DNA of 64,000 nt, from NCBI GenBank assembly GCA_017409785.1, contig JAFQSD010000004.1:130910-194909 (forward strand), written 5' to 3'. Under the pieces are notes generated by a model, which saw nothing but the letters and a program-made list of their open reading frames with translations, ran no database searches and was not told where the DNA came from. Positions 5,244 through 39,088 of the stretch are shown here, piece after piece (position 1 is the first letter of the stretch; the number at the start of each line of letters is the position of its first letter). The translations under genes were made by a program, and so were the position numbers. Source of the stretch: Bacilli bacterium (lineage in GTDB: Bacteria > Bacillota_I > Bacilli_A > RF39 > UBA660).

Positions 5244-6113
5244 ATGCAATATTTTCAAATATTAACATGTAATGATGCCCTAGGAACTTGTTGTACTGAT
5301 TTTGCTTTAGCATCAGTATTAGATGTAGTACGCAAATTCTTTAATATATTTCAATTAGTAGTTCCAATTCTTTTAATTGTTGGAGTGACAATTCAATTAA
5401 TAAAATTAATGAGTAATCCAGATGAAAAAGGTGGCGGAAAAAAAGTAATAAATAGAATTATTGCTGCTGTAGTTTGTTTCTTCCTACCAATGATGGTTGA
5501 CGTTGTACTTGGAATGATAAGTCAAACATCAACATTTAAAGTAGCAGATTGCTGGGAATTAGCCAAAATATCAAGTGAAGTTTCTCAAGCAAATAAAGCA
5601 ACGTATATTAATCCATATAAAGATGAAGAAAGAAAATCAATTTTAATTGATCCAAGCCTTTATAAACCAGGAACACCATCTAATCCAACTGGTTCAGATC
5701 CACAACCCGGTAATGGACAAGCTTCATTATTAGGTTCTCAAATAGTAGTATATGCCAAAAAATTCGTAGGACAAAGATATGTATATGGTGGTTCATGGAA
5801 CGGAGAACTACCATACACCCCAACTGACTGTAGTGGATTTGTTCAAGGAGTATTTAAACATTTTGGTATAAGTCTTCCAAGAACCACATCGACTCAATGG
5901 GCTGCTAAGTCAAAATATCAATTAGTAAGTCCAGCAGATATTAGAGCAGGAGACCTAGTAATGTATGACGGTCATGTCGGAATATTAACAGGTATTGGTA
6001 CAGAAGTAGTTCATGCTAAAGGATCAAAATGGGGAGTTGTTCTTGATCCTGACTATAGAACTTGTTCTAGTCATGCAATCCTTGGAATAATGCGAATTAA
6101 TGGTGTAAATTAG
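5244..6113 (+). CDS. Fusion protein: an N-terminal two-helix pilin-like membrane hairpin plus a C-terminal NlpC/P60 (C40) cell-wall peptidase.
   Basis: The N-terminal region ...IQLIKLMSNPDEKGGGKKVINRIIAAVVCFFLPMMVDVVLG is paralogous to ORF 26057 and to the C-terminus of ORF 26470. The C-terminus has the C40 Cys and His motifs DCSGFV...GHVGIL. AGGAGG RBS. Confidence 0.6.
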   Translation: MQYFQILTCNDALGTCCTDFALASVLDVVRKFFNIFQLVVPILLIVGVTIQLIKLMSNPDEKGGGKKVINRIIAAVVCFFLPMMVDVVLGMISQTSTFKVADCWELAKISSEVSQANKATYINPYKDEERKSILIDPSLYKPGTPSNPTGSDPQPGNGQASLLGSQIVVYAKKFVGQRYVYGGSWNGELPYTPTDCSGFVQGVFKHFGISLPRTTSTQWAAKSKYQLVSPADIRAGDLVMYDGHVGILTGIGTEVVHAKGSKWGVVLDPDYRTCSSHAILGIMRINGVN

Positions 6114-14137: not shown

Positions 14138-15940
14138 ATGAATAAAAAAACTATAAATTTTTTAAAACTTTTGGTAGTAGTAGTAATCGCAGCCTTATTT
14201 GTATGGTTTGTATTTATATATCCATCATACAACTTTAGTAAATATGAAAAAAGTTTAGAGGAAGCAGCAAAAAGATATTTCGATTTAAATCAAACAGAAT
14301 TACCTACTGGAAATAGAATTGCAACAGTCTCAATGCAAACTCTATATCACAAATCATATTTAAAAGAAGATTTTTATATTCCATATACTGATGAACCATG
14401 TAACTTAAAAGATTCATGGGTAAAAGTTAGAAAAGTAGATGGAGAATATAAGTATTATACATATCTACAATGCGGAGCTATTAGATCAACAGTAGATAGT
14501 AAAGGACCAACAATAAATTTAAATGGTTCTGAAAAAATAACAGTTGATTTAGGCGAAGAATATAAAGACCCAGGAATTAAAAGTGTAGTAGATAACAGTG
14601 ACGGAAAAATGGATGTTAAAGAAGTAACTGTTAATGCTAGTAAAGTTGATACAAATAAAATTGGAACATACGAAGTAACATATACAGCACAAGATGCATT
14701 AAAGAATAAAACAGTAGTTACAAGAGAAGTTGAAGTTGTATCTAAAATAAAAAATGCTGTAAAAGTTGCCACTGATAAAAAAGGTTATTATACAGGTAAA
14801 GAACCAAATAACTACTTAAGATTATCAGGAATGTTATTTAGAATCATTGGTGTAGATGGAGATAATGTTAAAATAGTTGCCTCAGAAGATATTGCCAATG
14901 TTAACTATAGTGGTATCTCATCATGGCTAGAAGATTACTATATGAGTCATATTAATGACGAAGCTAAAAAGCTTTTAGTAAAAAACAAATATTGTAATAT
15001 GTCAGCAACTACAGAAAACTTATCAACGACAGAATGTACATCATATACGAAGAAAAGATATGCGTATGTAACTTCAATAACAGATGTAAATAAATCATTA
15101 GTAAATAATGAATCATTCTTAAGACCAGGAACAATGACTTGGTTAGCAAATGAGAGTGATAAAGATAAAGCCTATGCAACAAGAAATATTTTCTTTGGAG
15201 AATATTCTTACAATTATGTATTTATTCCAGAAAACAAATCTGAAAACTATGGAGTTCGCCCGGTACTAACTGTAAAAGGAAATACATTAGTAAAAAAAGG
15301 AGACGGAACATATGAAAATCCATATTCATTTGGTGAAACCAAATCTGGAAAGATTGATGAAAAGATAAATACAAGATATTCTGGTGAATATTTAGAATAT
15401 GCAGGAAACCTATGGAGAATCATTGAAGTAAATAGCGATGGAACAACAAAAATTATTTCTGTAGAAAATATTAAAAAAAATGGTGTCCCTGTTGAAATAA
15501 AATATGACACAAAATCAGACAAAAAGATTTATAATCCAAAAGAAAAAGGAAACATAGGATATCAAATTAACAATAGAATGAGTGAATATATTGATACATC
15601 ATATTTCGTTAATAAAAATATAAGTGTGCCAATTTATAAAAAAGAATTCCAATATGGCAAAGAATTAGAAACTAAGAAGTACAAAGTTAAATTGTCCGCA
15701 CCAAATATGTATGAAATGTTCTCAACTATTGAAAATCAAAAAAATTCATCATATTGGTTAATTAATTCATCTGAAGCAAAATATTACAAAGCAGTAACAT
15801 CAGATGTAGGAGTAGTGGTTAGTGGAGAAATAGGAGATTTCACAAAATTTGGAGTAAGAGTAGTTGGAAATCTATCTAAATCGGTAATCATTACAAAAGG
15901 AAATGGAACACTTGAAAAACCATATGGTATTACGAAGTAA
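14138..15940 (+). CDS. Membrane-anchored surface protein with an Ig-like (DUF5011-type) domain and C-terminal repeats shared with ORF 37871.
   Basis: N-terminal TM segment. GPTINLNGSEKITVDLGEEYKDPGIKSVVDNSDGK...IGTYEVTYTAQDALKNKTVVTREVEVV is a classic DUF5011 Ig-like pattern. Repeated NY.RL...(F/W)RII...K(I/V)(I/V) and RPV..L.....K.G.GT...PY motifs. Confidence 0.55.
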   Translation: MNKKTINFLKLLVVVVIAALFVWFVFIYPSYNFSKYEKSLEEAAKRYFDLNQTELPTGNRIATVSMQTLYHKSYLKEDFYIPYTDEPCNLKDSWVKVRKVDGEYKYYTYLQCGAIRSTVDSKGPTINLNGSEKITVDLGEEYKDPGIKSVVDNSDGKMDVKEVTVNASKVDTNKIGTYEVTYTAQDALKNKTVVTREVEVVSKIKNAVKVATDKKGYYTGKEPNNYLRLSGMLFRIIGVDGDNVKIVASEDIANVNYSGISSWLEDYYMSHINDEAKKLLVKNKYCNMSATTENLSTTECTSYTKKRYAYVTSITDVNKSLVNNESFLRPGTMTWLANESDKDKAYATRNIFFGEYSYNYVFIPENKSENYGVRPVLTVKGNTLVKKGDGTYENPYSFGETKSGKIDEKINTRYSGEYLEYAGNLWRIIEVNSDGTTKIISVENIKKNGVPVEIKYDTKSDKKIYNPKEKGNIGYQINNRMSEYIDTSYFVNKNISVPIYKKEFQYGKELETKKYKVKLSAPNMYEMFSTIENQKNSSYWLINSSEAKYYKAVTSDVGVVVSGEIGDFTKFGVRVVGNLSKSVIITKGNGTLEKPYGITK

Positions 15941-15951
15941 GAGGTGAGGTT

Positions 15952-16782
15952 ATGCACAAGAAAAATAAAAGAAAATTAAAACTGAATCAGAGGACCAAGA
16001 CATTAGCTCTTGTAACAGGTCTTCTGATTTGTTGCTGTATTGTACTAGTTACATTAACTGCGATGTGGATAGTACCAAAAAATATCTATAAAGTAGAAGA
16101 CAGACAAAAAGAAATTAAGAAAGAACAAAAGAAAGATGAAGAAGGAATCGAAACAGTAGCTTGGCTAAGAGTTCAAGGAACAATGATTGATACTCCAATC
16201 GTTGCCTATGAAGAAGGAAAAGATCTAAGTTACCTAGATAAAGAAGATTTCTTGTGGACAGAAGCAAAAACAGCAGAATATAAAAACCAAATCAAAATAA
16301 TGGGCCATAACATTTTAAATCTATCTGCCACACCAGAAATAGGAGTAAACTACTTTACAAAATTTGAAGATTTAATGGCATTTACTTATGAAGATTTTGT
16401 TAAAGAAAACAAATATATTCAATATTCAATCGGTGATAAAGAATATGTATATAAAGTATTCGCTGTGCTATATGACAAAAGTTATAATTTAGATTTATAT
16501 AATACAGATAATTATTCAACTGAAGAAATGGCAGATTATATTGAATTAGTGGAATCAAAGAGTTTATACGACTTTGATATAGATGTTGATGCAAGTGATG
16601 ACATCATTTCATTAGTAACATGTTCTAGACTATACGGAGTAGATCAAAAAAGACAATTCGTTGTTGTAGGAAGATTACTAAGAGATAATGAAAAGATGAC
16701 AAACTATTCATTTGAAACAACAGAAAAATATGAAGAAATTCAAAAACTAATGAAAGGAGAAATTAACTATGAAGCAGTATAG
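15952..16782 (+). CDS. srtB: Class B sortase-family transpeptidase.
   Basis: N-terminal TM segment. AWLRVQGTMIDTPIV matches the SrtB GWL.I.GT.IDYPV motif. Catalytic His (IMGHN), the TLxTC-type Cys motif ISLVTCS, and a downstream Arg (VVVGRLL) are present. Confidence 0.65.
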   Translation: MHKKNKRKLKLNQRTKTLALVTGLLICCCIVLVTLTAMWIVPKNIYKVEDRQKEIKKEQKKDEEGIETVAWLRVQGTMIDTPIVAYEEGKDLSYLDKEDFLWTEAKTAEYKNQIKIMGHNILNLSATPEIGVNYFTKFEDLMAFTYEDFVKENKYIQYSIGDKEYVYKVFAVLYDKSYNLDLYNTDNYSTEEMADYIELVESKSLYDFDIDVDASDDIISLVTCSRLYGVDQKRQFVVVGRLLRDNEKMTNYSFETTEKYEEIQKLMKGEINYEAV

Positions 16783-19726
16783 AAAAAGATTAATAGGGGT
16801 TATTCTTCTTGGTTTATTCACCTTAGTTTTAAGTTATAATGCTATAGCTGAAGAAACAACAACAACACCTCCAGCTGAAGAACCTGCAGTAAAAGAGTGT
16901 AAAAACGGTGAAGTTCAAGACATTGAATCTCGTTATAACTTAAAACTAGAAAAAGTTGGTGCTGGTCAATATAAAGTAACAATGGCTGGAGATGCAGCTG
17001 ATATTGATACAGGTGCATTCAAAATCATCGGTACTGAAGTAGGTATTGGTGATGACGAATATGAAGGAATTACTGGACCAGTTGGTACAATCAATGCCAT
17101 AGAAACAATTGCAGAAATTAAAAAAGGTCAAGATGCATACTTCAATGCAACACCAGCCACAGCAGCAGATGGTGCTAAGATATTAGCAGTAAAAGTTCAA
17201 ATGGTTGCAGGATCATCACTATTAAATGACTGTGACTATACAGGTAGACTTGTAATTAAAGATTACGGAGATTCAGCAATAAGCAATATCTTCAGTGGTG
17301 GTAACACACAAGAAAATTCAAAGTCTATTTATAAAACAGGAAGTATTTGTTATAACTTCTACAATGGAATTTGGAATAGTGAACAATTTATAGGTATAAG
17401 AGAATCAGATTTTAATGCTTACAATTACCAAGCGGCAGCAGGATTAATGGTTGGTGGTAAATCAGCTCAAGCAATTTATCAAACAACATTATCATATTGT
17501 TTCCAACAACATGTAACAATTGGAGCAGAATATTCTGATACAGACTTAGCTAATATGATTGGAAATGCAATCACATATACAAAGTCAAGAACACAAACAA
17601 TCGGTGGTTCAAATAAAACGTTTGCACAATTATTTGAAGAAATAAAAACTCACGCAAAAGTTCAAAATAAATCTGGTAAAACAGCTGAAGATAAAGGAAT
17701 CACTTGTGATTGGCAAAAAACAGAAACAACAGGAGATCCAAACGATTATTATAAAAATAAAAACTATTATTACAAAGAAGAACAAGTAGAATCAATTTCA
17801 GTTCAATATACATATAACTATGCTCCTGGTGATGTAGTAACAACACCAGCACAAGAAGTATGTACAAGAACATGTGCAGAAGCAGTAAAAGTGGAATATG
17901 GTCCACCAGTTGCTTCAAAAGCTGGATTATGCTTTGAATATAACGTAAAAGTAACAAGTTATGTAGAATGTACATCTGATATAAAACTTGATCCTCCAGT
18001 AGCACAAACAAACTATTGTAGTCCAGTTGCATTCTGTCACGAAAAGAACTGGAGATGGAGTGGTCACCAAGCAGGACCAACAGAAGAATTCGACGCATGT
18101 ATTCAAGAATGCGACGGAGGAAAATATACAAGTAAATGTAGTAAAAAATGTTACAAGAAAGTATATAAAAATTCAAAACTAAAATTATCATATGAAAATG
18201 ATATAGTAGCTAGTAGATTAAGCAATACATATACAGTAGATTCATGTATCGCAACAAGTCCAGATGGTGGATGTTATTACTGGAGTGGTAACGACATCAT
18301 GTGGAAGAGTACATACCAAGGCGGTCTAGACTTTACTAATGATGTAAGAGCTCTAGGAAGATGGTATAGAGAAGTACAATGGTACGTTGGAGACTTAGGA
18401 GAAGGAAGATCATACGACGTTTCTTCAAATGGTATCAAGACTAAGAAGAAAGCAAGTTCTTCAACAGGACACTGTCAAGATATTTGTTATTGGAAAACAG
18501 ACGTTTGTACAAAAGGTCAATATTTAAATCCAAACTCAGCATTAGAAGACTACCAAGCTAACTTAAAATTATATCAATCAAAAGTTGCTCAATGTGAAGC
18601 TGCAACAACATGTAGTTCATCAACTGCAACATTTACAATTTCAATTAACTATGATTCATATGTACAAGAAACAGGGGCAAGTGCTAAAACTAAAAAGAAA
18701 ACAACAATTAATTTCCCTCGTTCACCATTGAATCAAGATAAATTACCATCACATGGTAAAGATGTAGTAGATACAAGCAACACATTCAATGCCGATGGTT
18801 CAACATTATTGTCATACAATGGATGTTATACAGCAGCAACAGAAAAGAACTGGTATCAAGCTGAATGGGGATTCCCAGGAACATACATCCATAACAAAAC
18901 TGGAGAAATTTCTTATTCAAAAGATAAGATTCAAAGTGATACAGGTACAATCGAAGGATGGTACTATGATGATAATAAATTCTGTATGCCACTTGAAGCA
19001 GAAAGTGTTAATACAAAATGGTGGGAATGGTACAAGATAAACAACATGCAATTTAGCTGTTACACAAGCGACCAAATCAAAAATGAATTAGCAACAAACG
19101 ACGGAACATCAAATGGATACAACATCCATGCATCAACAACAGATTTTGGATACTTCGGTTGGGACTTCGATATAAGTTGTTTCTATGCACTTAGAAATGA
19201 ACTATGTGACGAAGATACATTAACACATTGTTGTAAAAAAGATACTTGTGTTGGAGATTCTTGTGAAACAGAAATAAACGGAGTTAAAAATTATATGTTC
19301 AGAGCAATCGATACAAATAACGTATTCCCAAATGCGATTGTAGAAGGTGTTACTGATGAAACAAAACGACCAATTGGATTCAACTGGACAAATAAAGCAG
19401 CAAACTCTAAAAACCCAGATTATCTTGTTAATCCAGCAAAATTAATTGAACAAATTGAAAATAGAAGTGAAAGTCTTTATACAGATGATAACTTAGATTA
19501 TCAATTCCATTTAACACCAGAAGTATTATGGAAAATTAAAGAGTACAATAAAGAAACACCATATGGTACATGGAATGGTAGAGTAGATATCAAAAACGGA
19601 ATCTACGTATATTTCAGTAACCTATGGGGAGAAATAGATAGTGGTGTAACAAAAACAGTAGACTTAAGAAACTACAGTTCAGTACTTAAAACTGGTACAC
19701 CAGGTGTAAATAATGAGGAGGATTGA
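16769..19726 (+). CDS. Large (985 aa) secreted cysteine-rich protein of unknown function.
   Basis: Signal peptide MKQYRKRLIGVILLGLFTLVLSYNAIA. About 40 Cys in clustered C-x-x-C, C-x3-C and CC patterns. No LPXTG or NPQTN sorting signal and no C-terminal anchor. Start overlaps the sortase stop. Confidence 0.6.
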   Translation: MKQYRKRLIGVILLGLFTLVLSYNAIAEETTTTPPAEEPAVKECKNGEVQDIESRYNLKLEKVGAGQYKVTMAGDAADIDTGAFKIIGTEVGIGDDEYEGITGPVGTINAIETIAEIKKGQDAYFNATPATAADGAKILAVKVQMVAGSSLLNDCDYTGRLVIKDYGDSAISNIFSGGNTQENSKSIYKTGSICYNFYNGIWNSEQFIGIRESDFNAYNYQAAAGLMVGGKSAQAIYQTTLSYCFQQHVTIGAEYSDTDLANMIGNAITYTKSRTQTIGGSNKTFAQLFEEIKTHAKVQNKSGKTAEDKGITCDWQKTETTGDPNDYYKNKNYYYKEEQVESISVQYTYNYAPGDVVTTPAQEVCTRTCAEAVKVEYGPPVASKAGLCFEYNVKVTSYVECTSDIKLDPPVAQTNYCSPVAFCHEKNWRWSGHQAGPTEEFDACIQECDGGKYTSKCSKKCYKKVYKNSKLKLSYENDIVASRLSNTYTVDSCIATSPDGGCYYWSGNDIMWKSTYQGGLDFTNDVRALGRWYREVQWYVGDLGEGRSYDVSSNGIKTKKKASSSTGHCQDICYWKTDVCTKGQYLNPNSALEDYQANLKLYQSKVAQCEAATTCSSSTATFTISINYDSYVQETGASAKTKKKTTINFPRSPLNQDKLPSHGKDVVDTSNTFNADGSTLLSYNGCYTAATEKNWYQAEWGFPGTYIHNKTGEISYSKDKIQSDTGTIEGWYYDDNKFCMPLEAESVNTKWWEWYKINNMQFSCYTSDQIKNELATNDGTSNGYNIHASTTDFGYFGWDFDISCFYALRNELCDEDTLTHCCKKDTCVGDSCETEINGVKNYMFRAIDTNNVFPNAIVEGVTDETKRPIGFNWTNKAANSKNPDYLVNPAKLIEQIENRSESLYTDDNLDYQFHLTPEVLWKIKEYNKETPYGTWNGRVDIKNGIYVYFSNLWGEIDSGVTKTVDLRNYSSVLKTGTPGVNNEED

Positions 19727-19732
19727 TTATAG

Positions 19733-20224
19733 ATGAACAAAGGAATGTTAACAGTAGGAATTATCATGTTAAGTCTAATGGCACTATTATTAATCAATGT
19801 CATTAGTAACTACTCAACTGGTGGAGAATTAGACTACTACCTAGTAAAAGAAACAACAGAGGCTGCAATGGAAGATGCCATTGACCTTGAATATTACAGA
19901 ATGAATTCATTATTAAGAATCGACAAAGAGAAGTTCGTAGAGAGCTTCCTTCGTCGATTTGCCGATAATGTCGATAATACACGTTCATACACAGTGAGCT
20001 TCTATGATATTAATGAAGTTCCACCAAAAGTAAGTGTAAAAGTTGATTCTCATACAGTATTAAGTTTCTCAGGTTCAGCAGCAAATATTTCAACAAATAT
20101 TGATGCAATTCTAGAAACAGATTACGAAGAAGATAAATACACTGAAAAAGTATTATCAGATCCAGATAACGATGCTGGATATGGAATCGGTGATAGAAGT
20201 AATAGTGCGAAAGGAGCAGAATAA
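19733..20224 (+). CDS. Bitopic membrane protein with a pseudopilin-like (TadE/TadF-like?) N-terminus.
   Basis: N-terminal hydrophobic segment MNKGMLTVGIIMLSLMALLLINVISNY. First gene of the Tad-like module. Confidence 0.3.
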   Translation: MNKGMLTVGIIMLSLMALLLINVISNYSTGGELDYYLVKETTEAAMEDAIDLEYYRMNSLLRIDKEKFVESFLRRFADNVDNTRSYTVSFYDINEVPPKVSVKVDSHTVLSFSGSAANISTNIDAILETDYEEDKYTEKVLSDPDNDAGYGIGDRSNSAKGAE

Positions 20225-20226
20225 AA

Positions 20227-21033
20227 ATGGGGAATCTTAGTACAGGAATAAAAAAGTTCTTACAAAACAAGAATACCGTAACAGTACTTGGAGTTGTTGT
20301 TGCAATCATCATATTATATGTTGCATACAATATGCGTGTTCAATCAGCAATTAATCCAATTAATGTTCCATATGCTAAAGAACAAATTTCACCTGGTACA
20401 CAAATTACAGCAAACATGGTTGGAACAAGAGCTGTACCACCATCAATGCTTGAAGGAGATGTAATCACATCTCAAAGTGCTGTAATTGATAAGTATTCTA
20501 GTGCTGATACAGTAATACCTGCAGGAAGTCTATTCTATGCAAGAACTGTAGTAGAAAAAGAACAATTACCTGCAAATATTATTCTTACTTATCCAAAAGG
20601 ATATGTATTATATAATATGTCAGTTACAACATCAACAACATATGGAAACTCAGTTTATCCAGGAAACTATATTGATATTTACTTAAAAGCAGTAAATAAA
20701 ATTGGTGAAGACGAAGAAATGACTGCTGATGCTGATAAAATCATGTTAGGAAAACTAATGTCTAACGTTAAAGTTTTAGCAGTAAAAGATTCTTCTGGAC
20801 AAGCAGTTTTCTCAAATCTAGATGAAAAAAGAACACCTGCAATGATCGTATTTGCAGTACCAGAAGAATATTATATTTTACTTAAAAAAGCAGAATATTT
20901 AAGAACATATGATTCAACACTAATCCCAGTTCCAACAAACGAAAGTTTAAAAGACGAACCAGGAGAATTAGAAATCAGTAGTGAATCATTAAAAGACTGG
21001 ATTAACAAAGTTACAGTTTGGACAGAATCATAA
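20227..21033 (+). CDS. cpaB: CpaB/RcpC-like SAF-domain Flp pilus assembly protein.
   Basis: N-terminal TM segment followed by a SAF-like segment VPYAKEQISPGTQITANMVGTRAVPPSMLEGDVI. Confidence 0.55.
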   Translation: MGNLSTGIKKFLQNKNTVTVLGVVVAIIILYVAYNMRVQSAINPINVPYAKEQISPGTQITANMVGTRAVPPSMLEGDVITSQSAVIDKYSSADTVIPAGSLFYARTVVEKEQLPANIILTYPKGYVLYNMSVTTSTTYGNSVYPGNYIDIYLKAVNKIGEDEEMTADADKIMLGKLMSNVKVLAVKDSSGQAVFSNLDEKRTPAMIVFAVPEEYYILLKKAEYLRTYDSTLIPVPTNESLKDEPGELEISSESLKDWINKVTVWTES

Positions 21034-21078: not shown

Positions 21079-22470
21079 ATGAATGAAAATATATTTGATA
21101 AGTTAGACTTTGGTGCATTTCGTCCGTTACTAGACAACGATGATATTACCGATATTTCATATAGTAATGGGGGACAAATATGGATACGTTCTCTAACTCA
21201 AGGATCCCTAAGAGTAGAAATCGATGGTGCAACTCCAGAATTCGTTGAAAAACTAGCATTTCAATGTTCCAACGTTATGGGAACAACCTTCAATAATGCT
21301 AAGCCATTCTTAGATGCTGAATCTGCTGAGTTACGTATGAACTTCGTTCACCAATCAATTGCGACAAATGGAATTGCCTTAGTTATTCGTAAAACTCCAG
21401 CAAAAATCCGTTTGGAAAAAGAAAAATTGATTAAAGATGACTACTTCACAAGAGATATACATGACTTACTAATTAAATGTGTTCAAGGACACTGTAATGT
21501 CATGGTAGCAGGAGAAACTGGTTCCGGAAAAACAGAGTTCGTTAAGTACTTAGCCAGTCATACAAAAACAAGTGAAAAAATTATTACAATCGAAGATACA
21601 TTGGAACTTCACTTAGACAGAATCTTCCCACAAAGAGATATTGTTTCAATGAAGACCAACAATGTAGCAAGTTACTCAGATGTATTAGTTACTTGTATGC
21701 GTCAGAATCCAAAATGGATTCTACTTTCCGAAGTACGTAGTGCAGAAGCGGTTTCTGCAGTACGTAACTCAATTTCATCAGGACACAACATTTTATCTAC
21801 AATCCACGCTGACAAAGCATCAGCTATTCCATATCGTCTATATTCATTAATGGAAACTGACTTAGATGTACATCAATTCTTATCAACAATTTATCGTTAT
21901 ATTCAATTAGGTGTACATATTAAAGCTTACTACAGTAAAGAAAGAGGAAAATTCCATCGTGAATTAGATGAAGTGTGTGAATTCTATGTAGATGATGATA
22001 ATGTTCCACAATCTAGAATAATTTATCAAAAAATATTTGGTAAAAATCCAGTAATGAGAAAACCAAGTGATCATTTACTTCAATTCTTAGAAAATCAAAA
22101 TATTGATGTAAGTGCTATTGTTGATAAATTACCTGATGATATGCCATTTAAAGAACAAGAAGAAATTAAGTTAGAAAATGATCAAGACAATCAAACAACT
22201 GCTCAACCAGAAGCAACAAGTGAAACACCAGCAATAGAAAACAAACCAGTAGAAGAGCCAAAATTGGTTGAAGAAAAAAAAGAAGTAGTACAACCAGAAC
22301 AACCAACATTGCAACCACTTAATGAATCACCTCAACCAACACAACCTGCTCCTCAATTAGTTGCACAACCAAGCGAGCCAGTACAACAAGTAACACAACA
22401 ACCTGTACAACAACCAGCTCAACCGCAAGTACAACAACCAGCAGTTACTAAATTAGATAGTCTATCATAA
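21079..22470 (+). CDS. cpaF: CpaF/TadA-type (VirB11 superfamily) secretion ATPase with a Pro/Gln-rich C-terminal extension.
   Basis: Walker A motif VMVAGETGSGKTEF, Walker B/Asp box ITIEDTLEL, His box STIHADKA, and WILLSEVRSAEA. The C-terminal ~100 aa are QP/PQ-rich low complexity. Confidence 0.8.
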   Translation: MNENIFDKLDFGAFRPLLDNDDITDISYSNGGQIWIRSLTQGSLRVEIDGATPEFVEKLAFQCSNVMGTTFNNAKPFLDAESAELRMNFVHQSIATNGIALVIRKTPAKIRLEKEKLIKDDYFTRDIHDLLIKCVQGHCNVMVAGETGSGKTEFVKYLASHTKTSEKIITIEDTLELHLDRIFPQRDIVSMKTNNVASYSDVLVTCMRQNPKWILLSEVRSAEAVSAVRNSISSGHNILSTIHADKASAIPYRLYSLMETDLDVHQFLSTIYRYIQLGVHIKAYYSKERGKFHRELDEVCEFYVDDDNVPQSRIIYQKIFGKNPVMRKPSDHLLQFLENQNIDVSAIVDKLPDDMPFKEQEEIKLENDQDNQTTAQPEATSETPAIENKPVEEPKLVEEKKEVVQPEQPTLQPLNESPQPTQPAPQLVAQPSEPVQQVTQQPVQQPAQPQVQQPAVTKLDSLS

Positions 22471-22485: not shown

Positions 22486-23388
22486 ATGTATTTAGAAGAG
22501 TTATTAATAATTATAGTAATTATAGTTGGTATTTTCTTATACAGAAATTACAAAGGACAAAATGTTGGTAAATTTATTACTGAACAAGTAACAACAATCT
22601 ATGAAAAATACGCACCATTCTCCTTTAAAGTTGTTAGAGAAAAAGCCAAAGAATTAGGACAAGAGTATAGTACAAAACAATATATTATGCAAATATGTTT
22701 ATTTGCAGGAGGAGCTGCAGCCATAAGCTACTTATACTTTTACAACATTGTTATAAGTTTATTCTATGCTGTAATTGCCGTTACTTTTGTTCCTTATCTA
22801 GCATACTTAAGATGTAAAAGAGTATATAGTGAATTTATTTTTGAGCAAATCCAAGTATATACATCAAACGTAATTATGGAATTTGCTACAACTCAATCAT
22901 TTGTTAAGTCATTAGAAGGAGTTAGAAATTCAGGAATCTTAGAAGATCCAGTTCTAAGTGACGTTAATCACATGATTGAATTATCTTATGACAATGGTAC
23001 TATTGATGAAGCCTTAGCATATATGAGTGAATTATATCCATATTATATAGTTAAGAATATGCATCAATTATTCTTACAAATTACAAAAGAAGGTGCTCGT
23101 AACTCAGCAGATTCACTTGATAACATGCAACTTGATATCGACATGTTAATTGAAAGTGTATATCGTGACCGTATTGAAAGAGCATCATTCCACAAAAACT
23201 TCTTAACATTCGGATTTACATTATATTTACTTGTAATGTTAGTTCAACTCCTACTAGGAAATGAAAGTTATATCATTCTACTAGAAAGATGGTATATCCA
23301 AGTATTATTACATGCAGTAATTGTTGTTAATACATATTTCCTTTTAAAAGGAGAAAAATACTATAATGAGAATGTAGGTGCTGAATAA
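22486..23388 (+). CDS. tadB: TadB-like (T2SSF/GspF-domain) pilus assembly inner-membrane protein.
   Basis: About 300 aa with N-terminal and C-terminal TM pairs flanking a cytoplasmic alpha-helical domain. Adjacent to cpaF. Confidence 0.5.
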   Translation: MYLEELLIIIVIIVGIFLYRNYKGQNVGKFITEQVTTIYEKYAPFSFKVVREKAKELGQEYSTKQYIMQICLFAGGAAAISYLYFYNIVISLFYAVIAVTFVPYLAYLRCKRVYSEFIFEQIQVYTSNVIMEFATTQSFVKSLEGVRNSGILEDPVLSDVNHMIELSYDNGTIDEALAYMSELYPYYIVKNMHQLFLQITKEGARNSADSLDNMQLDIDMLIESVYRDRIERASFHKNFLTFGFTLYLLVMLVQLLLGNESYIILLERWYIQVLLHAVIVVNTYFLLKGEKYYNENVGAE

Positions 23389-24194
23389 TGGAAGTATTAA
23401 TTATTGGAGCAATCATATTATTTGTATTAGTATATAACAATACCATTGATAAGAATAAGTTCTTCGCAGATAATGAAAAATATCTAGAATCATTAAAAGA
23501 AAAAGATTATGAGTTCCTAGTATATGCAAGATATGGAGATCAAGTTGATGTTAAACAACTATATATGCAAAGAGTTACATATGCACTTATAACATTCTTC
23601 ATTGTATTAGGATTTGCAGTTAGTGGAGGAAATCAAGATAAACTTGGTTCAGAGTTCTTCCTATATTTAGCAATAGCTGCAGTAGTAGCCTTTATAGTTT
23701 TTAAATCATCATATACCCAATTAAAAGGTTATTATAAAAAACACTTACATGAAATTGACGTTATGTTACCATACTATTTAAAGAGTTTGGAAATCTTAAT
23801 CCAACACTATACAGTTCCAGTAGCATTAGGTAAGTCAATAGACGATGCTCCTGAAATATTTAAACCAGGATTAAGAAAATTAATTGATCGTATCAATGCC
23901 GGAGATTCAACAATTGATCCTTACATGGAATTTGCAAATACATATCCTGTAAGAGATTCAATGCGTATGATGCGTCTATTATATCGTCTTGGATTAGGTT
24001 CACAAGAAAAGAAACAAGAACGTTTAATGATGTTTTCAAGAACTGTTTCAACACTACAAAACAAAGCTCGTGAAACAAAATATAAAGAACGTTTAGGATT
24101 CATGGAATCTCAAACTATGGTAATGTTAGTTGTTACCGGAGTTGGTGTAATGTTAATTATTTTAATCTCAATGATGATGATGTTCAGTATGTAA
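23388..24194 (+). CDS. tadC: TadC-like (T2SSF/GspF-domain) pilus assembly inner-membrane protein.
   Basis: Same architecture as ORF 22486. ATGA start/stop overlap with tadB. Confidence 0.5.
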   Translation: MEVLIIGAIILFVLVYNNTIDKNKFFADNEKYLESLKEKDYEFLVYARYGDQVDVKQLYMQRVTYALITFFIVLGFAVSGGNQDKLGSEFFLYLAIAAVVAFIVFKSSYTQLKGYYKKHLHEIDVMLPYYLKSLEILIQHYTVPVALGKSIDDAPEIFKPGLRKLIDRINAGDSTIDPYMEFANTYPVRDSMRMMRLLYRLGLGSQEKKQERLMMFSRTVSTLQNKARETKYKERLGFMESQTMVMLVVTGVGVMLIILISMMMMFSM

Positions 24195-24210
24195 ACAATA
24201 CAAAAAAAAG

Positions 24211-24239
24211 TTGTTTAGTAGATTTTAATTTGCTATAAT
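24211..24239 (+). promoter_or_regulatory. Candidate sigma-A promoter (TTGTTT-17-TATAAT) dedicated to the small pilin-like gene.
   Basis: TTGTTT at 24211-24216 and TATAAT at 24234-24239, 32 nt upstream of the ATG at 24272. Confidence 0.4.
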
Positions 24240-24271
24240 TAAATTATGATAACGAAAGGATGGGATAATAA

Positions 24272-24439
24272 ATGAAAGATGCGACAGGTGAATTAAACTT
24301 AACAGTAATCACATTAGTAGCTATCGCTGCAGTTATTGGATTCTTCTGGGTAATGTGGCCAAATATTCAAAATGCCTTAAATACTCAATGGTCTAATATC
24401 AGTAGTGGAGGACCTGCTACAATCATAGTAGAAAGATAA
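24272..24439 (+). CDS. flp: 55-aa Flp/pilin-like small hydrophobic protein, absent from the ORF track.
   Basis: MKDATGELNLTVITLVAIAAVIGFFWVMWPNIQNALNTQWSNISSGGPATIIVER: a short polar leader ending in Gly, then a hydrophobic helix. AAGGATGGG RBS and its own promoter. It has no E at +5, so it is not a canonical G/XXXXEY Flp. Confidence 0.4.
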   Translation: MKDATGELNLTVITLVAIAAVIGFFWVMWPNIQNALNTQWSNISSGGPATIIVER

Positions 24440-24458
24440 CAAAAAGAGGGTGTTTTAA

Positions 24459-24914
24459 ATGCGTGATGCTTTTGGAGGAGTTGCCAACTTAGTTATTATA
24501 GTTGTATTCCTTACTTTAGTTTCTGGATATTTAGCGTTTAACGTTAACTATACCAAAGCATTCAGAGTTAAGAATAAAATAATTTCTTTATATGAACAAT
24601 ATGAAGGAGAACAATGTTACCACAACGATACAAGTGAATGTAATATTAAAATTCGTGACTATATGAATGCACTTGGATACGATGCTCCATATCTAAATCT
24701 AGAAGGATACAATTGTTATTATGGATATTGTGCAAAAAAATTTGAAACTGAAAAAGTAGATGACAGCGTAACGGGTGACACTAAGAAAAAAGCGTATTAC
24801 AACATTGTAACGCAAATAAATATTGATATTCCTATTATTAATAAGATACTACCGGGATTGAAAATATTTCAAATAGCCGGTGATACAAAACCAATCGTAA
24901 TTGGAATTGGCTAA
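24459..24914 (+). CDS. TadE-like pseudopilin (putative minor pilin).
   Basis: N-terminus MRDAFGGVANLVIIVVFLTLVSGYLAF: a short leader with GG then a hydrophobic helix. Cys-containing extracellular part. AGAGGGTG RBS. Confidence 0.35.
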   Translation: MRDAFGGVANLVIIVVFLTLVSGYLAFNVNYTKAFRVKNKIISLYEQYEGEQCYHNDTSECNIKIRDYMNALGYDAPYLNLEGYNCYYGYCAKKFETEKVDDSVTGDTKKKAYYNIVTQINIDIPIINKILPGLKIFQIAGDTKPIVIGIG

Positions 24915-24931
24915 AAAGAGGGTGATACTGA

Positions 24932-26002
24932 GTGAACGTAATAGTTTCAAATGAACAACAAAGTCAAACAGCTAATTTAGATGTCGATATAATTAAAAGT
25001 ATTACTGGAGCATATAGTTCAATTGAACTAGTAGAAATGTTTAAGAATTTCTTCTACAGTAAAATGGTTTTAGATGTAACATCTATTAAAAATTATCAAA
25101 ATATCTTAGAATATAAAACATTAGCTGATGGATTAGATCCAGATAAAATTATTTTCTTTATTCCAGAAGGAAGTAGTTTATGTACACCTAACTTTCTAGC
25201 TAAACTAGTAACGTTGGGAATATATAATTTCACAACTAATATAGATGGAGTAAAATATTTATTAAAAAAATCAAACACATTTAATGATGTAGCTCACATT
25301 CAACAAATGGGCGGTGGTGTTATTGAAGAACTTCAACAACCACCACAACCAGACCCTGCGGAACAAGGGGCTCAAACTCAACAAGGAACTTTTGTAGCTC
25401 CGGCACATCATGTTCAAGTTCAGCAAGGAAGTATGGCTAGAACAATAAAAATTGGTGTACGTAATGTTACAGACCATGCAGGAGCAACAAGTTTGATATA
25501 TATGTTCAAAAAAGAACTTACATCAGTATTTGGTGAAAGTAACGTTGTTGCAATAGAAATTAATAAAAATGATTTTCAATTCTATAATGATAAGAATATG
25601 ATATCAACAACAACTAATGACATAAAGACAGTTATTGAAAGATATAATGGAGTATCTGTACTGTTAATAGATTTAAATGATTTTGAAGATAACACAATTT
25701 GTGATGATGTTCTATATTTATTAGAGCCAAGTACTTTAAAATTAAATAAGTTAATTAGAAAGAATAAACATATTTTTGGTAAAATAAAAGATAAAAAAAT
25801 TGTATTCAATCAAAGTTTATTAACTAGTAAAGATATAAGTGAGTTAGAATACGAAGCGGGAATCAAATCCTTCTTTAATCTACCTCCAGTTAATGATAGA
25901 AAGAAAAACGAAATAGTAACAGAATTACTTGCAAAACTTGGATTATTACAAATTACAGGTGGCAATAATTCTGGTAAAATATTTGGTCTATTTAGACGTT
26001 AA
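24932..26002 (+). CDS. TadZ/CpaE-like protein: a pseudo-receiver N-domain plus a ParA/MinD-like domain with a degenerate P-loop.
   Basis: GTG start with AAGAGGGTGA RBS. The second half has IKIGVRNVTDHAGATSLIYMF where ParA has KGGVGKTT, and VLLIDLND is a Walker-B-like box. Confidence 0.35.
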   Translation: MNVIVSNEQQSQTANLDVDIIKSITGAYSSIELVEMFKNFFYSKMVLDVTSIKNYQNILEYKTLADGLDPDKIIFFIPEGSSLCTPNFLAKLVTLGIYNFTTNIDGVKYLLKKSNTFNDVAHIQQMGGGVIEELQQPPQPDPAEQGAQTQQGTFVAPAHHVQVQQGSMARTIKIGVRNVTDHAGATSLIYMFKKELTSVFGESNVVAIEINKNDFQFYNDKNMISTTTNDIKTVIERYNGVSVLLIDLNDFEDNTICDDVLYLLEPSTLKLNKLIRKNKHIFGKIKDKKIVFNQSLLTSKDISELEYEAGIKSFFNLPPVNDRKKNEIVTELLAKLGLLQITGGNNSGKIFGLFRR

Positions 26003-26005
26003 TAT

Positions 26006-26034
26006 TTGACAAAAAAAATGATATAATGTATTAT
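26006..26034 (+). promoter_or_regulatory. Candidate sigma-A promoter (TTGACA-17-TATTAT) upstream of the pilin-like gene 26057.
   Basis: TTGACA at 26006-26011 and TATTAT at 26029-26034. An alternative -10 is TGATATAAT. Confidence 0.35.
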
Positions 26035-26056
26035 ATACATTGAAGGAGAGGTTTGT

Positions 26057-26377
26057 ATGTTAGAATTAGTTCAATTAGCTTCAGCATGTGGAGGATTAGA
26101 CCCACTAGTAAGTTTAGTTAAAAACGGGTTGTTCCCAATCGTATATATTATTATTCCAATTGCATTACTTATTTATGCAGTTATCGATTTTGGTAAGGCA
26201 GTAATTGCAAGTGATGAAAAAGAAGTTAAAGCAGCACAAAGTAGATTAATCAAACGTGCAATTTATGCAGCACTAATTTTCTTCGTAGTATTCCTAGTTA
26301 AAGCAATTATGGATGTAGTTGCTAAAGGTGGAACTGGAAATACTGGAGATTGGTGGTCTTGCTGGGAATCAGTATAA
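26057..26377 (+). CDS. Two-helix hairpin membrane protein, a VirB2/TrbC-like T4SS pilin candidate.
   Basis: The 106-aa sequence ...PIVYIIIPIALLIYAVIDFGKAVIASDEKEVKAAQSRLIKRAIYAALIFFVVFLVKAIMDVV... is paralogous to the N-domain of ORF 5244 and to the C-domain of ORF 26470. Confidence 0.45.
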   Translation: MLELVQLASACGGLDPLVSLVKNGLFPIVYIIIPIALLIYAVIDFGKAVIASDEKEVKAAQSRLIKRAIYAALIFFVVFLVKAIMDVVAKGGTGNTGDWWSCWESV

Positions 26378-26469
26378 TATAGACAGTAAAATAAAAAATA
26401 GTAAATAAATTGCTATTTTTTTTTTCTTCTGATATACTTAATATGTTATAATGTATTTGGAGTGATCTT

Positions 26470-27552
26470 ATGAAAAAAAAGCAACTATTTGGTTTGATTT
26501 TATTAATGTTAATAACATTATTTATACCAAATAACATCAATGCAAAAGAGAAAAAAGTAATTTGTGAATATCAATATAAAAACCAAGAATTAATTTATAC
26601 AATTGATAATAAAGTAATTCTTCCATTTGAGGATGGAAAAGACAATTGGTATCATGGACAAGATTTTAAAAATAACTATTTGAAAAATTCAAAAATAAAT
26701 AGCAATACTTATGTATGTCCAACAATAACAATTGAAGAATCTGATAGTTTTATAACAATATTTAATAATCCAAGAAGTGAAGATGAGTGTAGTGGAGTAT
26801 GTACAACTCTATCAGCAATAAACTATCAGTCAAGTAAAAATATAAATGTTAAAAAAGCAGTAGATACTACTGCTATTAGTAGTGTAGGAATTTATAATCA
26901 AGATAATTACTTTATTCCATATTTTAGATTATTAGAAGACGGTACAAAAGAATGGTCAGTTGATGGAATTAATTACAAGCCAGTAACTGAAAAAGTAGAA
27001 AATGACAAACTAGAAATAAGTTTAGATAAGTCATTAATTGAAGAAATTTATCAAGATAAAAACTTAAATAAAAATGTCACAATATATAGAAATGTAAAAA
27101 ATGATAATAACAAATATATCTATTTATTAGCAACACATAAAGTATCTGGTTACAATTTAAATGACGGACAAGAAACTAGTGCTAGAGCATATCATGCTGC
27201 ATATGGTGACCCAGACATAGATGAGTGGTTAGAAGATTATAATCAAAACCAAGATTGTTCTGGAGATAATAGTATTCTAGGAAGTTATAACGACCCTAAC
27301 TCAGTAGCATACTTCCTACAAATAATATTTAATTGGTTAAAACTTATTGGTCCATTTATAGTTATAGTTATGAGTGGTATAGATTTTGCTAAAGTAATCG
27401 TAATGGGTGATGATGATGGAATGAAGAAAGCTCAAACAAAATTAATCATCAGATTAATTCTTGCAGCATGTTTATTCTTCTTACCAGATTTAATCAAAGC
27501 ATTCTTAGACTTATTCAATATTACATCAAGTGGAATCTGTGGATTACAATAG
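26470..27552 (+). CDS. Secreted protein with a ~270-aa ectodomain fused to a C-terminal pilin-like two-helix domain.
   Basis: Signal peptide MKKKQLFGLILLMLITLFIPNNINA. The C-terminus GIDFAKVIVMGDDDGMKKAQTKLIIRLILAACLFFLPDLIKAFLDLF matches the ORF 26057 family. Confidence 0.45.
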   Translation: MKKKQLFGLILLMLITLFIPNNINAKEKKVICEYQYKNQELIYTIDNKVILPFEDGKDNWYHGQDFKNNYLKNSKINSNTYVCPTITIEESDSFITIFNNPRSEDECSGVCTTLSAINYQSSKNINVKKAVDTTAISSVGIYNQDNYFIPYFRLLEDGTKEWSVDGINYKPVTEKVENDKLEISLDKSLIEEIYQDKNLNKNVTIYRNVKNDNNKYIYLLATHKVSGYNLNDGQETSARAYHAAYGDPDIDEWLEDYNQNQDCSGDNSILGSYNDPNSVAYFLQIIFNWLKLIGPFIVIVMSGIDFAKVIVMGDDDGMKKAQTKLIIRLILAACLFFLPDLIKAFLDLFNITSSGICGLQ

Positions 27553-37853: not shown

Positions 37854-37870
37854 TAGAAGGAGATTTGCTT

Positions 37871-39088
37871 ATGTCAATGAATTTTAAAGTAGAAGGCGAA
37901 AAAGACAAAGAAAAAGTAGCCGATGAATTAGATGAAGTAGTAGATGAATACGAAGAATTTGAAGAAGTAGAAACAAGTTCATCATCAAGTAGTAAAAGCG
38001 ATGATAAAAAAGGTCTTGTTAAACTATTATCTATACTTCTAGGGGTTATAATAGTGTTTATTTTAGTAATGTTCCTATTAACTTCATGTACATCAGGTAC
38101 AAAAACATATGAAGAAATGGAAGCATTAATGGTAGAGGCAGCAGAGTCATATTTTGCTGATCATAACGAAAACTTACCTAAAAAAGATGGTGGAACACAA
38201 ACTATCGACGTATCAGTACTAGTTGCAGAAGGATATATGAAGGACTTATCTAAATATAATAGTGCAATATGTACAGGAACTGTAAAAGTTCAAAAATCTG
38301 GAAGCACATATGCTTATACACCAAACTTAAATTGTGGTGAATCATATGCTTCAGTAGAATTATCTGATAAAATTAAAGACGATAATAAAATAGTTAGTTC
38401 AGGATATGGATTATATAATAAGAATGGAAATTATGTATTCCGTGGTGAAACAGTAAATAACTATGTTCAATTAGATAATGCAGTATGGAGAGTTGTTAAA
38501 ATTACTTCTAGTGGTAATACAGTAATTATCTTAGATGAACCACTACCAATGACATCACCATATGATAATCGTTATAATGAAGTAGCAAACTACAAGTCAG
38601 GAATTAATAACTATTCTTCAAGTAGATTAAAAGAAAAATTATTAGAAGAATATAACAAAGAAGAATCATTCCTAAGTGATAACGATAAAGCAAAAACAGA
38701 TACATTTAATATTTGTTCTGGAGCACGTTCATTAACTGAAACAGGTGTAGAACAAGCAGTTGAATGTAAATTACAAGAACAAAATCAAAAAGTAGGATTA
38801 TTAACAGCAGCAGATTACATGAATGCAAGTGTTGATGCAGGATGTACAACAGTAGCAAGTAAGAACTGCCAAAACTATAACTACTTAAATGGTCCAAAAG
38901 CTGAGTGGTGGACATTAACTCCATCTAAAACTAATACATATTTAGCTTATATGGTTAGTATCAATAATGGAATTAAAGAAACAGAAACATATAACTATGC
39001 AGCATTAAGACCAGTTGTTTACTTAAACTCTAATGTATTATACAAGAGTGGTACAGGTACAGAAACTGATCCATATATAGTAAAATAA
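37871..39088 (+). CDS. Membrane-anchored surface protein: acidic cytoplasmic N-terminus, TM segment, and an extracellular domain sharing repeats with ORF 14138.
   Basis: First ATG at 37871 with an AAGGAG RBS (the ORF-track start at 37865 is TTG). Motifs NYVQLDNAVWRVVKITSSGNTVIIL and ALRPVVYLNSNVLYKSGTGTETDPYIV parallel the repeats in ORF 14138. Confidence 0.5.
   Translation: MSMNFKVEGEKDKEKVADELDEVVDEYEEFEEVETSSSSSSKSDDKKGLVKLLSILLGVIIVFILVMFLLTSCTSGTKTYEEMEALMVEAAESYFADHNENLPKKDGGTQTIDVSVLVAEGYMKDLSKYNSAICTGTVKVQKSGSTYAYTPNLNCGESYASVELSDKIKDDNKIVSSGYGLYNKNGNYVFRGETVNNYVQLDNAVWRVVKITSSGNTVIILDEPLPMTSPYDNRYNEVANYKSGINNYSSSRLKEKLLEEYNKEESFLSDNDKAKTDTFNICSGARSLTETGVEQAVECKLQEQNQKVGLLTAADYMNASVDAGCTTVASKNCQNYNYLNGPKAEWWTLTPSKTNTYLAYMVSINNGIKETETYNYAALRPVVYLNSNVLYKSGTGTETDPYIVK

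Follow-up and report, generated by a model that had tools for sequence, protein, structure and literature searches.

The described systems closest to the one considered here are the Tad pili, the type IV pili and archaella of archaea, and two gene clusters reported from gut bacteria. The Flp/Fap pilins of Tad loci (Aggregatibacter Flp1, Caulobacter PilA; Pfam family PF04964) are proteins of ~50–90 amino acids (aa) with one N-terminal hydrophobic helix after a short leader that ends in Gly. Their genes neighbour those for an ATPase of the CpaF/TadA type, a CpaB-like protein, and a pair of paralogous polytopic membrane proteins; expression of the subunit is probably high, and some lineages carry tandem paralogues. 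Archaeal type IV pilins and archaellins (PF07790) have a short hydrophobic N-terminus with little globular domain and lack a Glu at position +5. A gene-context embedding study drew attention to an operon of DUF5411, CpaF, and PilC/GspF genes in gut Clostridia (Roseburia, Ruminococcus, Eubacterium), describing it as secretion-related but uncharacterised and naming no pilin in it (Miller et al. 2022, PMC9523054). In the uncultured gut order TANB77, a Tad-like cluster is conserved order-wide and described as exclusive to the order; context and topology alone served to identify its pilin-like proteins (143–236 aa, and one of 621 aa), whose genes have their own predicted promoters (Kim et al. 2024, PMC11680825). 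The present study concerns a gene for a 55-aa pilin-like protein at positions 24272–24439 of a 64,000-nucleotide (nt) stretch of the genome of a Bacilli bacterium (GTDB lineage Bacillota_I; Bacilli_A; RF39; UBA660; assembly GCA_017409785.1, contig JAFQSD010000004.1, positions 130,910–194,909), hereafter the window, together with the gene cluster in which it lies.

The locus shares with Tad loci each of the features just listed for Flp/Fap pilins. It departs from them in that the 55-aa family has neither a PF04964 match nor the Flp motif G/XXXXEY, carrying Glu at +1 and Thr at +5, and has a six-residue leader that is itself invariant; the locus also lacks a TadV/CpaA peptidase gene, and its platform proteins are unrecognisable as TadB or TadC. 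The archaeal pilins resemble the family in their hydrophobic N-terminus, in the absence of Glu at +5, in having the best, though sub-threshold, profile resemblance (Pilin_N), and in that FlaI is the top solved relative of the ATPase; they differ from it in that the host here is a bacterium, no FlaK/PibD-type peptidase was seen nearby, and position −2 holds Thr or Ser where archaeal pilins have Lys or Arg. As in the Clostridia operon, DUF5411 stands beside a CpaF-type ATPase and platform genes in a Gram-positive gut bacterium, among other genes without recognisable homology, whereas the platform of that operon is a recognisable PilC/GspF protein and ours is not, and the cluster described here is fused to a type IV secretion system (T4SS) and comes from Bacilli-type metagenome-assembled genomes. 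With TANB77 it has in common an order-wide Tad-like cluster with CpaB, a CpaF-like ATPase, and TadB/C-like proteins in reduced-genome gut Firmicutes; unlike TANB77, the small subunit here is of ~55 aa, and the T4SS linkage found here was not reported there. Taking these comparisons together with the evidence below, we think it probable, though well short of certain, that the 55-aa protein is a pilin, namely the major subunit of a type IV filament that is a divergent member of the Tad/archaeal lineage. By sequence, this filament would appear nearer to the archaeal/Tad branch than to type IVa pili.

The gene and its expression signals lie on the forward strand, in window coordinates, as follows:

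24211–24216, + strand: −35 hexamer TTGTTT of the gene's own sigma-A-type promoter, read in the window, with TTGnnn conserved in related loci
24231–24239, + strand: extended −10 element TGcTATAAT (TGC at 24231–24233, TATAAT at 24234–24239), separated from the −35 hexamer by a 17-nt spacer
24255–24264, + strand: Shine-Dalgarno region AAAGGATGGG, which includes AAGGATGGG at 24256–24264, 7 nt before the ATG
24272–24439, + strand: 55-aa pilin-like protein, ATG at 24272, stop codon at 24437–24439, product MKDATGELNLTVITLVAIAAVIGFFWVMWPNIQNALNTQWSNISSGGPATIIVER
parts of the 55-aa protein, N- to C-terminus: leader MKDATG, invariant E7, hydrophobic helix at about residues 8–29, WP...QW.NIS motif, variable tail

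An earlier note on this DNA had called the open reading frame (ORF) unannotated and had presumed that the six-frame track left it out for being under 60 aa. The track did list only ORFs of at least 60 aa, and the label holds for that track alone: the exact product is already in GenBank as MBQ2910589.1, ‘hypothetical protein IJE53_07250 [Bacilli bacterium]’. A protein search covering 5.8 billion sequences turned up 621 relatives (90%-identity clusters) of 52–67 aa; none has a Pfam domain, and those with a name are all called ‘hypothetical protein’. Exhaustive searching of the 50%-identity representatives with HMMER gave 531 clusters at E ≤ 0.001. Sampling one genome per GTDB species gave at least 139 loci with the family, of which 80 were fetched. 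These are labelled uncultured Bacilli, Tenericutes, ‘Mycoplasma sp. CAG:877’, or Erysipelotrichaceae and come from human and animal guts, and from the labels we infer that their hosts belong to order RF39. Conservation in homologous loci, which the earlier note had named as a check on the ORF, was found in 80/80 of the fetched loci, with the same gene order wherever the contig extends. When 78 orthologues were compared pairwise over their first 45 codons, they differed on average at 6.8 first, 4.5 second, and 16.9 third codon positions, and residues 1–26 have undergone almost only synonymous change. Because of this conservation and codon pattern, the 55-codon gene is real, strongly conserved, and under purifying selection. 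The DNA here is AT-rich, and at 30% G+C short ORFs and promoter-like hexamers are common, as would suit either a chance ORF in intergenic sequence or a non-coding regulatory RNA; amino-acid conservation over hundreds of clusters with mostly synonymous change, a conserved ribosome binding site (RBS), and the lack of any Rfam family in 23000–26500 (with a single chance-level match elsewhere) leave that explanation with a vanishingly small probability. Nor is this a known plasmid or phage gene, given that a plasmid collection yielded no match to the cluster (megablast) or to the 55-aa protein (tblastn), a phage collection no match to the protein (tblastn), and IMG/VR, scanned with the family pattern, no relative of it. 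In the literature on RF39 and pili we found nothing that describes the gene.

The window's own sequence is uninformative about the promoter. Sigma-70-like sites occur in this DNA of ~30% G+C at the rate of shuffled sequence (48 against 46.6 expected), and since TTGTTT shares only 3/6 bases with the −35 consensus, the site was missing from the scanner's list. Comparison between loci was more telling. The motif TTGnnn, a 17-nt spacer, and TGnTAnnnT lies within 110 nt upstream of the 55-aa gene in 77/78 loci, with a spacer of 17 in every case, and is found in 3% of random 110-nt windows from the same loci. The −10 hexamer is TATAAT in 67 of the 77 loci and TATACT in 8, it is preceded by TGn in all 77, and it stands 30–55 nt from the ATG; the intergenic sequence around the motif has otherwise diverged between loci. 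GAAAGG(A) ends 10–16 nt 5′ of the ATG in all loci examined, and three distant loci (L086, L088, and L089) retain TTGAT(A/T), a 17-nt spacer, and TATAAT, together with AAGGAGG. The RBS AAGGATGGG and the TTGTTT-17-TATAAT promoter that the earlier note had read here are thus present and belong to conserved signals.

A per-gene census over an 11-gene stretch, using the strict pattern TTGnnn-14-TGnTAnnnT within 150 nt upstream, found a promoter before the 55-aa gene in 78/79 loci, before eight of the ten other cluster genes in no locus or one, before the T4SS_pilin-like (VirB2-like) gene in none, and before a 360-aa gene in 21/73. A relaxed pattern raised the VirB2-like gene to 76/77 and the 360-aa gene to 42/73, with the other genes between 4/80 and 19/77, so that near-universal promoters in the stretch are confined to the two small pilin-like genes, of 55 and 106 aa. 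On account of this phylogenetic footprinting, an internal promoter dedicated to the 55-aa gene is well supported and would presumably be active; transcription is predicted to start near 24246, for a 5′ untranslated region of ~25 nt. No intrinsic terminator was found between the gene and its neighbours.

The protein family pairs a nearly fixed N-terminus with a rapidly changing remainder. Across 124 clusters that share <50% identity overall, the protein begins M-K-[EAD]-A-[TS]-G-E-L-N-[ML]-T-V-[IV]-T-[IVL]-[VI]-A-I-[AG]-A, with M1, K2, A4, and E7 invariant and G6 present in 123 of the 124. A hydrophobic helix of ~22 residues follows the leader and ends F-F-[WY]..W-P, in agreement with the polar leader and hydrophobic helix that the earlier note had described. 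The first ~20–25 residues are nearly invariant and the C-terminus is hypervariable, to the point that mean column identity is 19% family-wide; total length runs from 43 to 107 aa, with the variation in the C-terminal remainder, which in longer members is rich in Ser, Thr, Asn, Gly, and Cys. The number of C-terminal Cys residues is even (2, 4, or 6) in 47/49 Cys-containing members, implying disulfides and an extracytoplasmic C-terminus. A short, positively charged leader that ends in Gly and precedes ~22 hydrophobic residues is what a class III-type leader looks like, and a conserved N-terminal helix joined to a variable, often Cys-paired C-terminal part is what is seen in pilins.

One relative stands apart from this description. 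P0255, from locus L084, is a 64-aa protein that joins a Flp-type N-terminus (MRLKLNNKG/QTLVEYVLII) to the C-terminal half of the 55-aa family (AIAAVIGFFWIMWPNIQ...) and, if genuine, would directly link the two families. It is encoded on a single 729-bp contig at 0.59x coverage, and a natural chimera was rejected in favour of a likely assembly artefact; we made no use of it.

The gene immediately downstream encodes a second pilin-like protein:

24459–24914, + strand: 151-aa candidate minor pilin (p151), leader MRDAFGG, present in 80/80 loci

The two window proteins align from Met1 with G6, G23, and the aromatic residue 24 in register, and the corresponding profiles are collinear from Met1 in hhalign at a score that is not significant (E = 0.061). 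The AlphaFold2 model of p151 (mean predicted local distance difference test score, pLDDT, of 77.6) places an N-terminal helix, residues 2–47, on a four-stranded sheet, which in this predicted form is the generic ‘lollipop’ architecture of pilins; p151 also has four conserved Cys and no Pfam family. In distant lineages, two tandem paralogues of the small protein are followed by two of p151. The leader M[KRQ][ED/R]x[TIS]G is found on 4/4 pilin-like genes of L088 and of L089 and on 3/4 of L086, where a 168-aa paralogue lacks the Gly at the leader's end, and paralogues that share the leader diverge right after the Gly.

The reading of the 55-aa protein as a major subunit accordingly draws on its invariant N-terminal helix, its diversifying, Cys-paired exterior, its tandem paralogues, the leader that it shares with a neighbour of pilin-like fold, its dedicated promoter, and its position right after a FlaI/CpaF-type ATPase and two paralogous membrane proteins. 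The other genes of this putative filament module are:

19733–20224, + strand: DUF5411 bitopic protein, a marker of the cluster type (PF17424, E = 6.7e-49)
20227–21033, + strand: CpaB/RcpC-like protein with a SAF domain (RcpC, 28.1 bits against a cut-off of 28.8)
21079–22470, + strand: secretion ATPase of the FlaI/CpaF/VirB11 superfamily (PF00437 T2SSE, E = 1.5e-27)
22486–23388, + strand: polytopic membrane protein of 300 aa, weakly paralogous to that of 268 aa
23388–24194, + strand: 268-aa polytopic membrane protein, its platform-like role suggested by position and topology only
24932–26002, + strand: 356-aa protein after the minor pilin, in 77/80 loci, with no Pfam or NCBIfam match

Wherever the contig extends, the order DUF5411, CpaB-like protein, ATPase, 300-aa protein, 268-aa protein, 55-aa protein, p151, 356-aa protein, and T4SS_pilin-like protein is kept in 80/80 loci, and it recurs in the distant loci L086, L088, and L089. 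The CpaB/RcpC-like protein also matches TIGR03177 (pilus_cpaB; E = 3.1e-10), below the cut-off. The best solved relatives of the ATPase are FlaI (1.2e-18) and CpaF (6e-18), ahead of VirB11 (~3e-13), and it is the probable motor of filament assembly. The 300-aa and 268-aa families align in hhalign with E = 0.0028 over 166 collinear columns and have invariant columns in common; both are laid out as an N-terminal transmembrane segment (TM), two TMs, a soluble helical region of ~130 aa, and C-terminal TMs. Neither protein has an informative Pfam or PDB match, and the 300-aa protein is possibly TadB-like. The labels ‘tadC’ and ‘TadE-like’ that the earlier note had attached to the neighbours drew no support from hidden Markov model (HMM) or PDB searches, and since neither T2SSF nor any PDB or other informative match was found, ‘tadC’ rests on position and topology. 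The 356-aa protein might be a degenerate TadZ/CpaE-like protein, with a receiver-like N-terminal part and a ParA/MinD-like domain whose Walker A motif has decayed, a suggestion that comes from its position and sequence layout only.

Several results weigh against a pilin. Neither the window protein nor its relatives gave a significant match to Flp_Fap, N_methyl, Class_IIIsignal, TadE, T4SS_pilin, or any solved pilin, and the earlier note's expectation of a major Flp pilin, for which it had suggested HMM searches against Flp/Fap and class III signal peptide models, stands as to position and fails as to family. The window protein has no Pfam match (none with E ≤ 1 for PF04964) and no NCBIfam match; among 129 diverse relatives, Flp1_like was matched by 4, and Flp_Fap is absent from the 25 most-matched of the 96 Pfam families hit. 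G6 is followed by E-L-N-[LM]-T-V in 123/124 clusters in place of G/XXXXEY, with Thr for the Glu that bacterial (but not archaeal) filament subunits of the type IV pilus, T2SS, and Tad kinds have at +5, Val for Tyr at +6, and an invariant Glu at +1 relative to G6. Archaeal Pilin_N (PF07790) was the most frequent Pfam match (23 of the 129 relatives at E ≤ 1, best E = 0.0049), aligning family residue 6 with profile position 8 and scoring ~14 bits in two members checked individually; all of these matches fall below the gathering score of 25.2 bits, and the window protein itself has none. No membrane-protein ORF, whether of the window or of ~85 related loci (12–20 kb), contains the A24 prepilin peptidase motif G.GD[..][KR]; the window and these loci also yielded no TadV/CpaA-type gene, and no A24 Pfam match was obtained among the scanned ORFs, which include every ORF of at least 100 aa in 12.5–39.1 kb. 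Scanned against Pfam, 41 TadB/C-like sequences had matches at chance level only and none to T2SSF; the AlphaFold2 model of the 300-aa protein is unusable (pLDDT 51.6, from a shallow alignment of ≥76% identity); and a Foldseek search with the p151 model returned no significant PDB neighbour and no pilin. Sequence and profile searches of the PDB with the 55-aa family likewise retrieved no pilin, only single-TM look-alikes, which were set aside. Best among them was the N-terminal subunit b membrane anchor of F-type ATP synthase (7p2y chain b, E = 0.019), matching family residues 8–40 in the pattern LN.T.I...IA...F..VWP.I..AI; we judge the resemblance to be compositional or convergent (a TM helix followed by W-P), and since this is the best PDB match, a generic membrane-anchor resemblance appears about as strong as any pilin resemblance. 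Finally, the whole leader is conserved, and not only its Gly, so the leader could be retained. On its sequence, the 55-aa protein is not a canonical Flp/Fap pilin.

The same results bear on the main rival reading, in which the protein is a small bitopic component of the filament or T4SS machinery (an anchor, an assembly factor, or a stator-like part) that stays in the membrane unpolymerised. The absence of a pilin family match and of a linked prepilin peptidase, the subunit b anchor as best PDB match, and an entirely invariant N-terminus that includes the residues before Gly6, as would befit a retained interaction surface, all speak for it, and monoderm T4SS clusters hold several small membrane proteins of unknown role. 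A hypervariable, Cys-paired C-terminus and tandem paralogues, however, fit an abundant, surface-exposed, diversifying subunit better; a dedicated strong promoter is otherwise found only before the VirB2-like gene, and the leader is common to a protein whose predicted fold is pilin-like. We therefore regard a bitopic machinery component as unlikely, while giving it serious weight.

Downstream, the module adjoins genes of a T4SS, the first of which is:

26057–26377, + strand: 106-aa VirB2-like T4SS_pilin-type protein, first gene of the T4SS module (PF18895, E = 0.0052, below the cut-off)

Its own promoter, TTGACA-17-TATTAT, lies at 26006–26034. PF18895 has no match in the 55-aa protein, which has one hydrophobic helix and not a two-helix hairpin. 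The 360-aa gene at 26470 encodes a C-terminal T4SS_pilin-like domain, and the T4SS genes comprise those for VirB2-like proteins, a TrbL/VirB6-like protein, a VirB4-type ATPase, a SpoIID-domain hydrolase, and a VirD4-type coupling protein, with another whose homologues in related loci match TraC-like (PF26593) and whose window copy has no Pfam match. The filament module abuts the T4SS in 71/80 loci (up to the VirB6-like gene, as far as contigs reach) and in the distant lineages L088 and L089, and is present without an adjacent VirB4 in L086; the pairing recurs across lineages whose pilins share <50% identity. No ORF of at least 100 aa in 12.5–39.1 kb matched a relaxase or integrase family. The cluster (window 12575–39088) lies next to greA here and in another species, on which ground it appears to be chromosomal and vertically inherited rather than an integrative and conjugative element.

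A small gene with its own promoter beside a T4SS could also encode the precursor of a secreted or signal-derived peptide (a pheromone or bacteriocin-like peptide) that regulates the adjacent transfer system, as in enterococcal conjugation operons. A Gly-Gly near the start of p151 and a C39-like peptidase domain, weakly detected beside SpoIID on the cluster hydrolase of L089, are in keeping with this. Against it, the length (25–30 residues) and invariance of the conserved hydrophobic N-terminus exceed what a Sec signal or a double-glycine leader would show; variation falls in the C-terminal part, which would have to be the ‘mature’ peptide; no AXA-type cleavage site is present; and the C39-like domain stands in the cell-wall hydrolase context with SpoIID. 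We consider a peptide precursor highly improbable.

Under the favoured reading, in which the 55-aa protein is the major filament subunit, the following course of events may be proposed. The extended −10 sigma-A promoter and strong RBS would lead to expression of the subunit far above that of the upstream machinery genes. The subunit would insert in the membrane with its N-terminus inside and its C-terminus outside, a topology suggested by the short, K-containing leader, the ~22-residue helix, and the even numbers of C-terminal Cys in longer relatives. The leader, M-K-x-A-[TS]-G, would probably be cut after Gly6 by a peptidase encoded elsewhere, as pilin-like paralogues share the leader and diverge after the Gly. 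The FlaI/CpaF-type ATPase and the two polytopic proteins would then extract subunits and polymerise them via their invariant N-terminal helices, with the 151-aa protein perhaps serving as a minor or priming pilin. More speculatively, since in most of the lineages studied the cluster runs on directly into the VirB4/VirD4/VirB6/VirB2-like T4SS, the filament would probably provide cell contact for that system.

Parallels for such a coupling are described in passages of one source (PMC12102498), which mention Gram-positive T4SS classes without VirB2-type pilins, type IV pili that assist transfer in IncI1 R64 (thin pilus) and in the Sulfolobales (Ups pili, with Ced DNA import), and chromosomal, mostly relaxase-less T4SSs with VirB2 arrays in the Patescibacteria. 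As far as those passages go, R64 and the Ups/Ced pair are like the present cluster in coupling a type IV filament module to a VirB4/VirB6/VirB2-type machine, the coupling here consisting of genomic adjacency only; they are unlike it in that their pilins are canonical type IVb or archaeal ones with known peptidases, and no relaxase was found in the cluster here. A bolder proposal, which we put forward tentatively and hold to be doubtful, is that the MKxATG-ELN proteins, with no Glu at +5 and no linked A24 peptidase, form an undescribed class of filament subunit, subject to a new kind of processing or none, whose assembly module is hard-wired to a chromosomal T4SS with no relaxase found in its cluster, the two together making up an apparatus for contact-dependent DNA or nutrient exchange in genome-reduced gut Bacilli. 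Such an apparatus would be comparable to the Ups pili and Ced system of the Sulfolobales or to the co-opted T4SS of the Patescibacteria, and not to an adhesion pilus or a mobile element.

The surroundings of the filament and T4SS modules hold further surface-type genes. The cluster opens with a gene for a class B sortase-like protein (15952–16782), which overlaps the start of a gene for a Cys-rich 985-aa protein (16769–19726) that has no Pfam domain and no C-terminal sorting signal; the pair could act as a tip adhesin or in cell-wall attachment. In distant lineages, the first cluster gene encodes a 250-aa protein with a C-terminal TM and no sortase match. Paralogous surface-type proteins at 14138–15940 and 37865–39088, with Ig-like and DUF6273 domains and similar ...G.GT...PY... 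C-terminal endings, flank the cluster. Outside it, at 5244–6113, a 289-aa protein has a VirB2-like T4SS_pilin domain at its N-terminus (PF18895, E = 2.1e-6, above the cut-off) and an NlpC/P60 peptidoglycan hydrolase at its C-terminus, an unusual architecture.

Public annotation gives the members of the 55-aa family no name but ‘hypothetical protein’; neither Pfam nor NCBIfam has a model for the family, and many ORF length cut-offs are set above its size. What is new here is a family of pilin-like proteins that has no model and whose N-terminal signature is non-canonical, set in a composite filament-plus-T4SS cluster; the gene itself was already annotated as hypothetical. Recognising the family provides a marker and a profile for finding such filaments, as well as a test case for the drift of pilin N-terminal rules (Glu5, A24 processing). 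It also offers a way to study how a type IV filament and a T4SS may be paired in monoderms, whose T4SSs, to our knowledge, are generally held to lack pili. Of all the products of this conserved 25-kb surface-machine cluster, that of the short gene is probably the one with the highest expression, the greatest surface exposure, and the most antigenic variation, and what is at stake is the means by which these abundant, uncultured, small-genome gut bacteria may attach to, or exchange material with, other cells.

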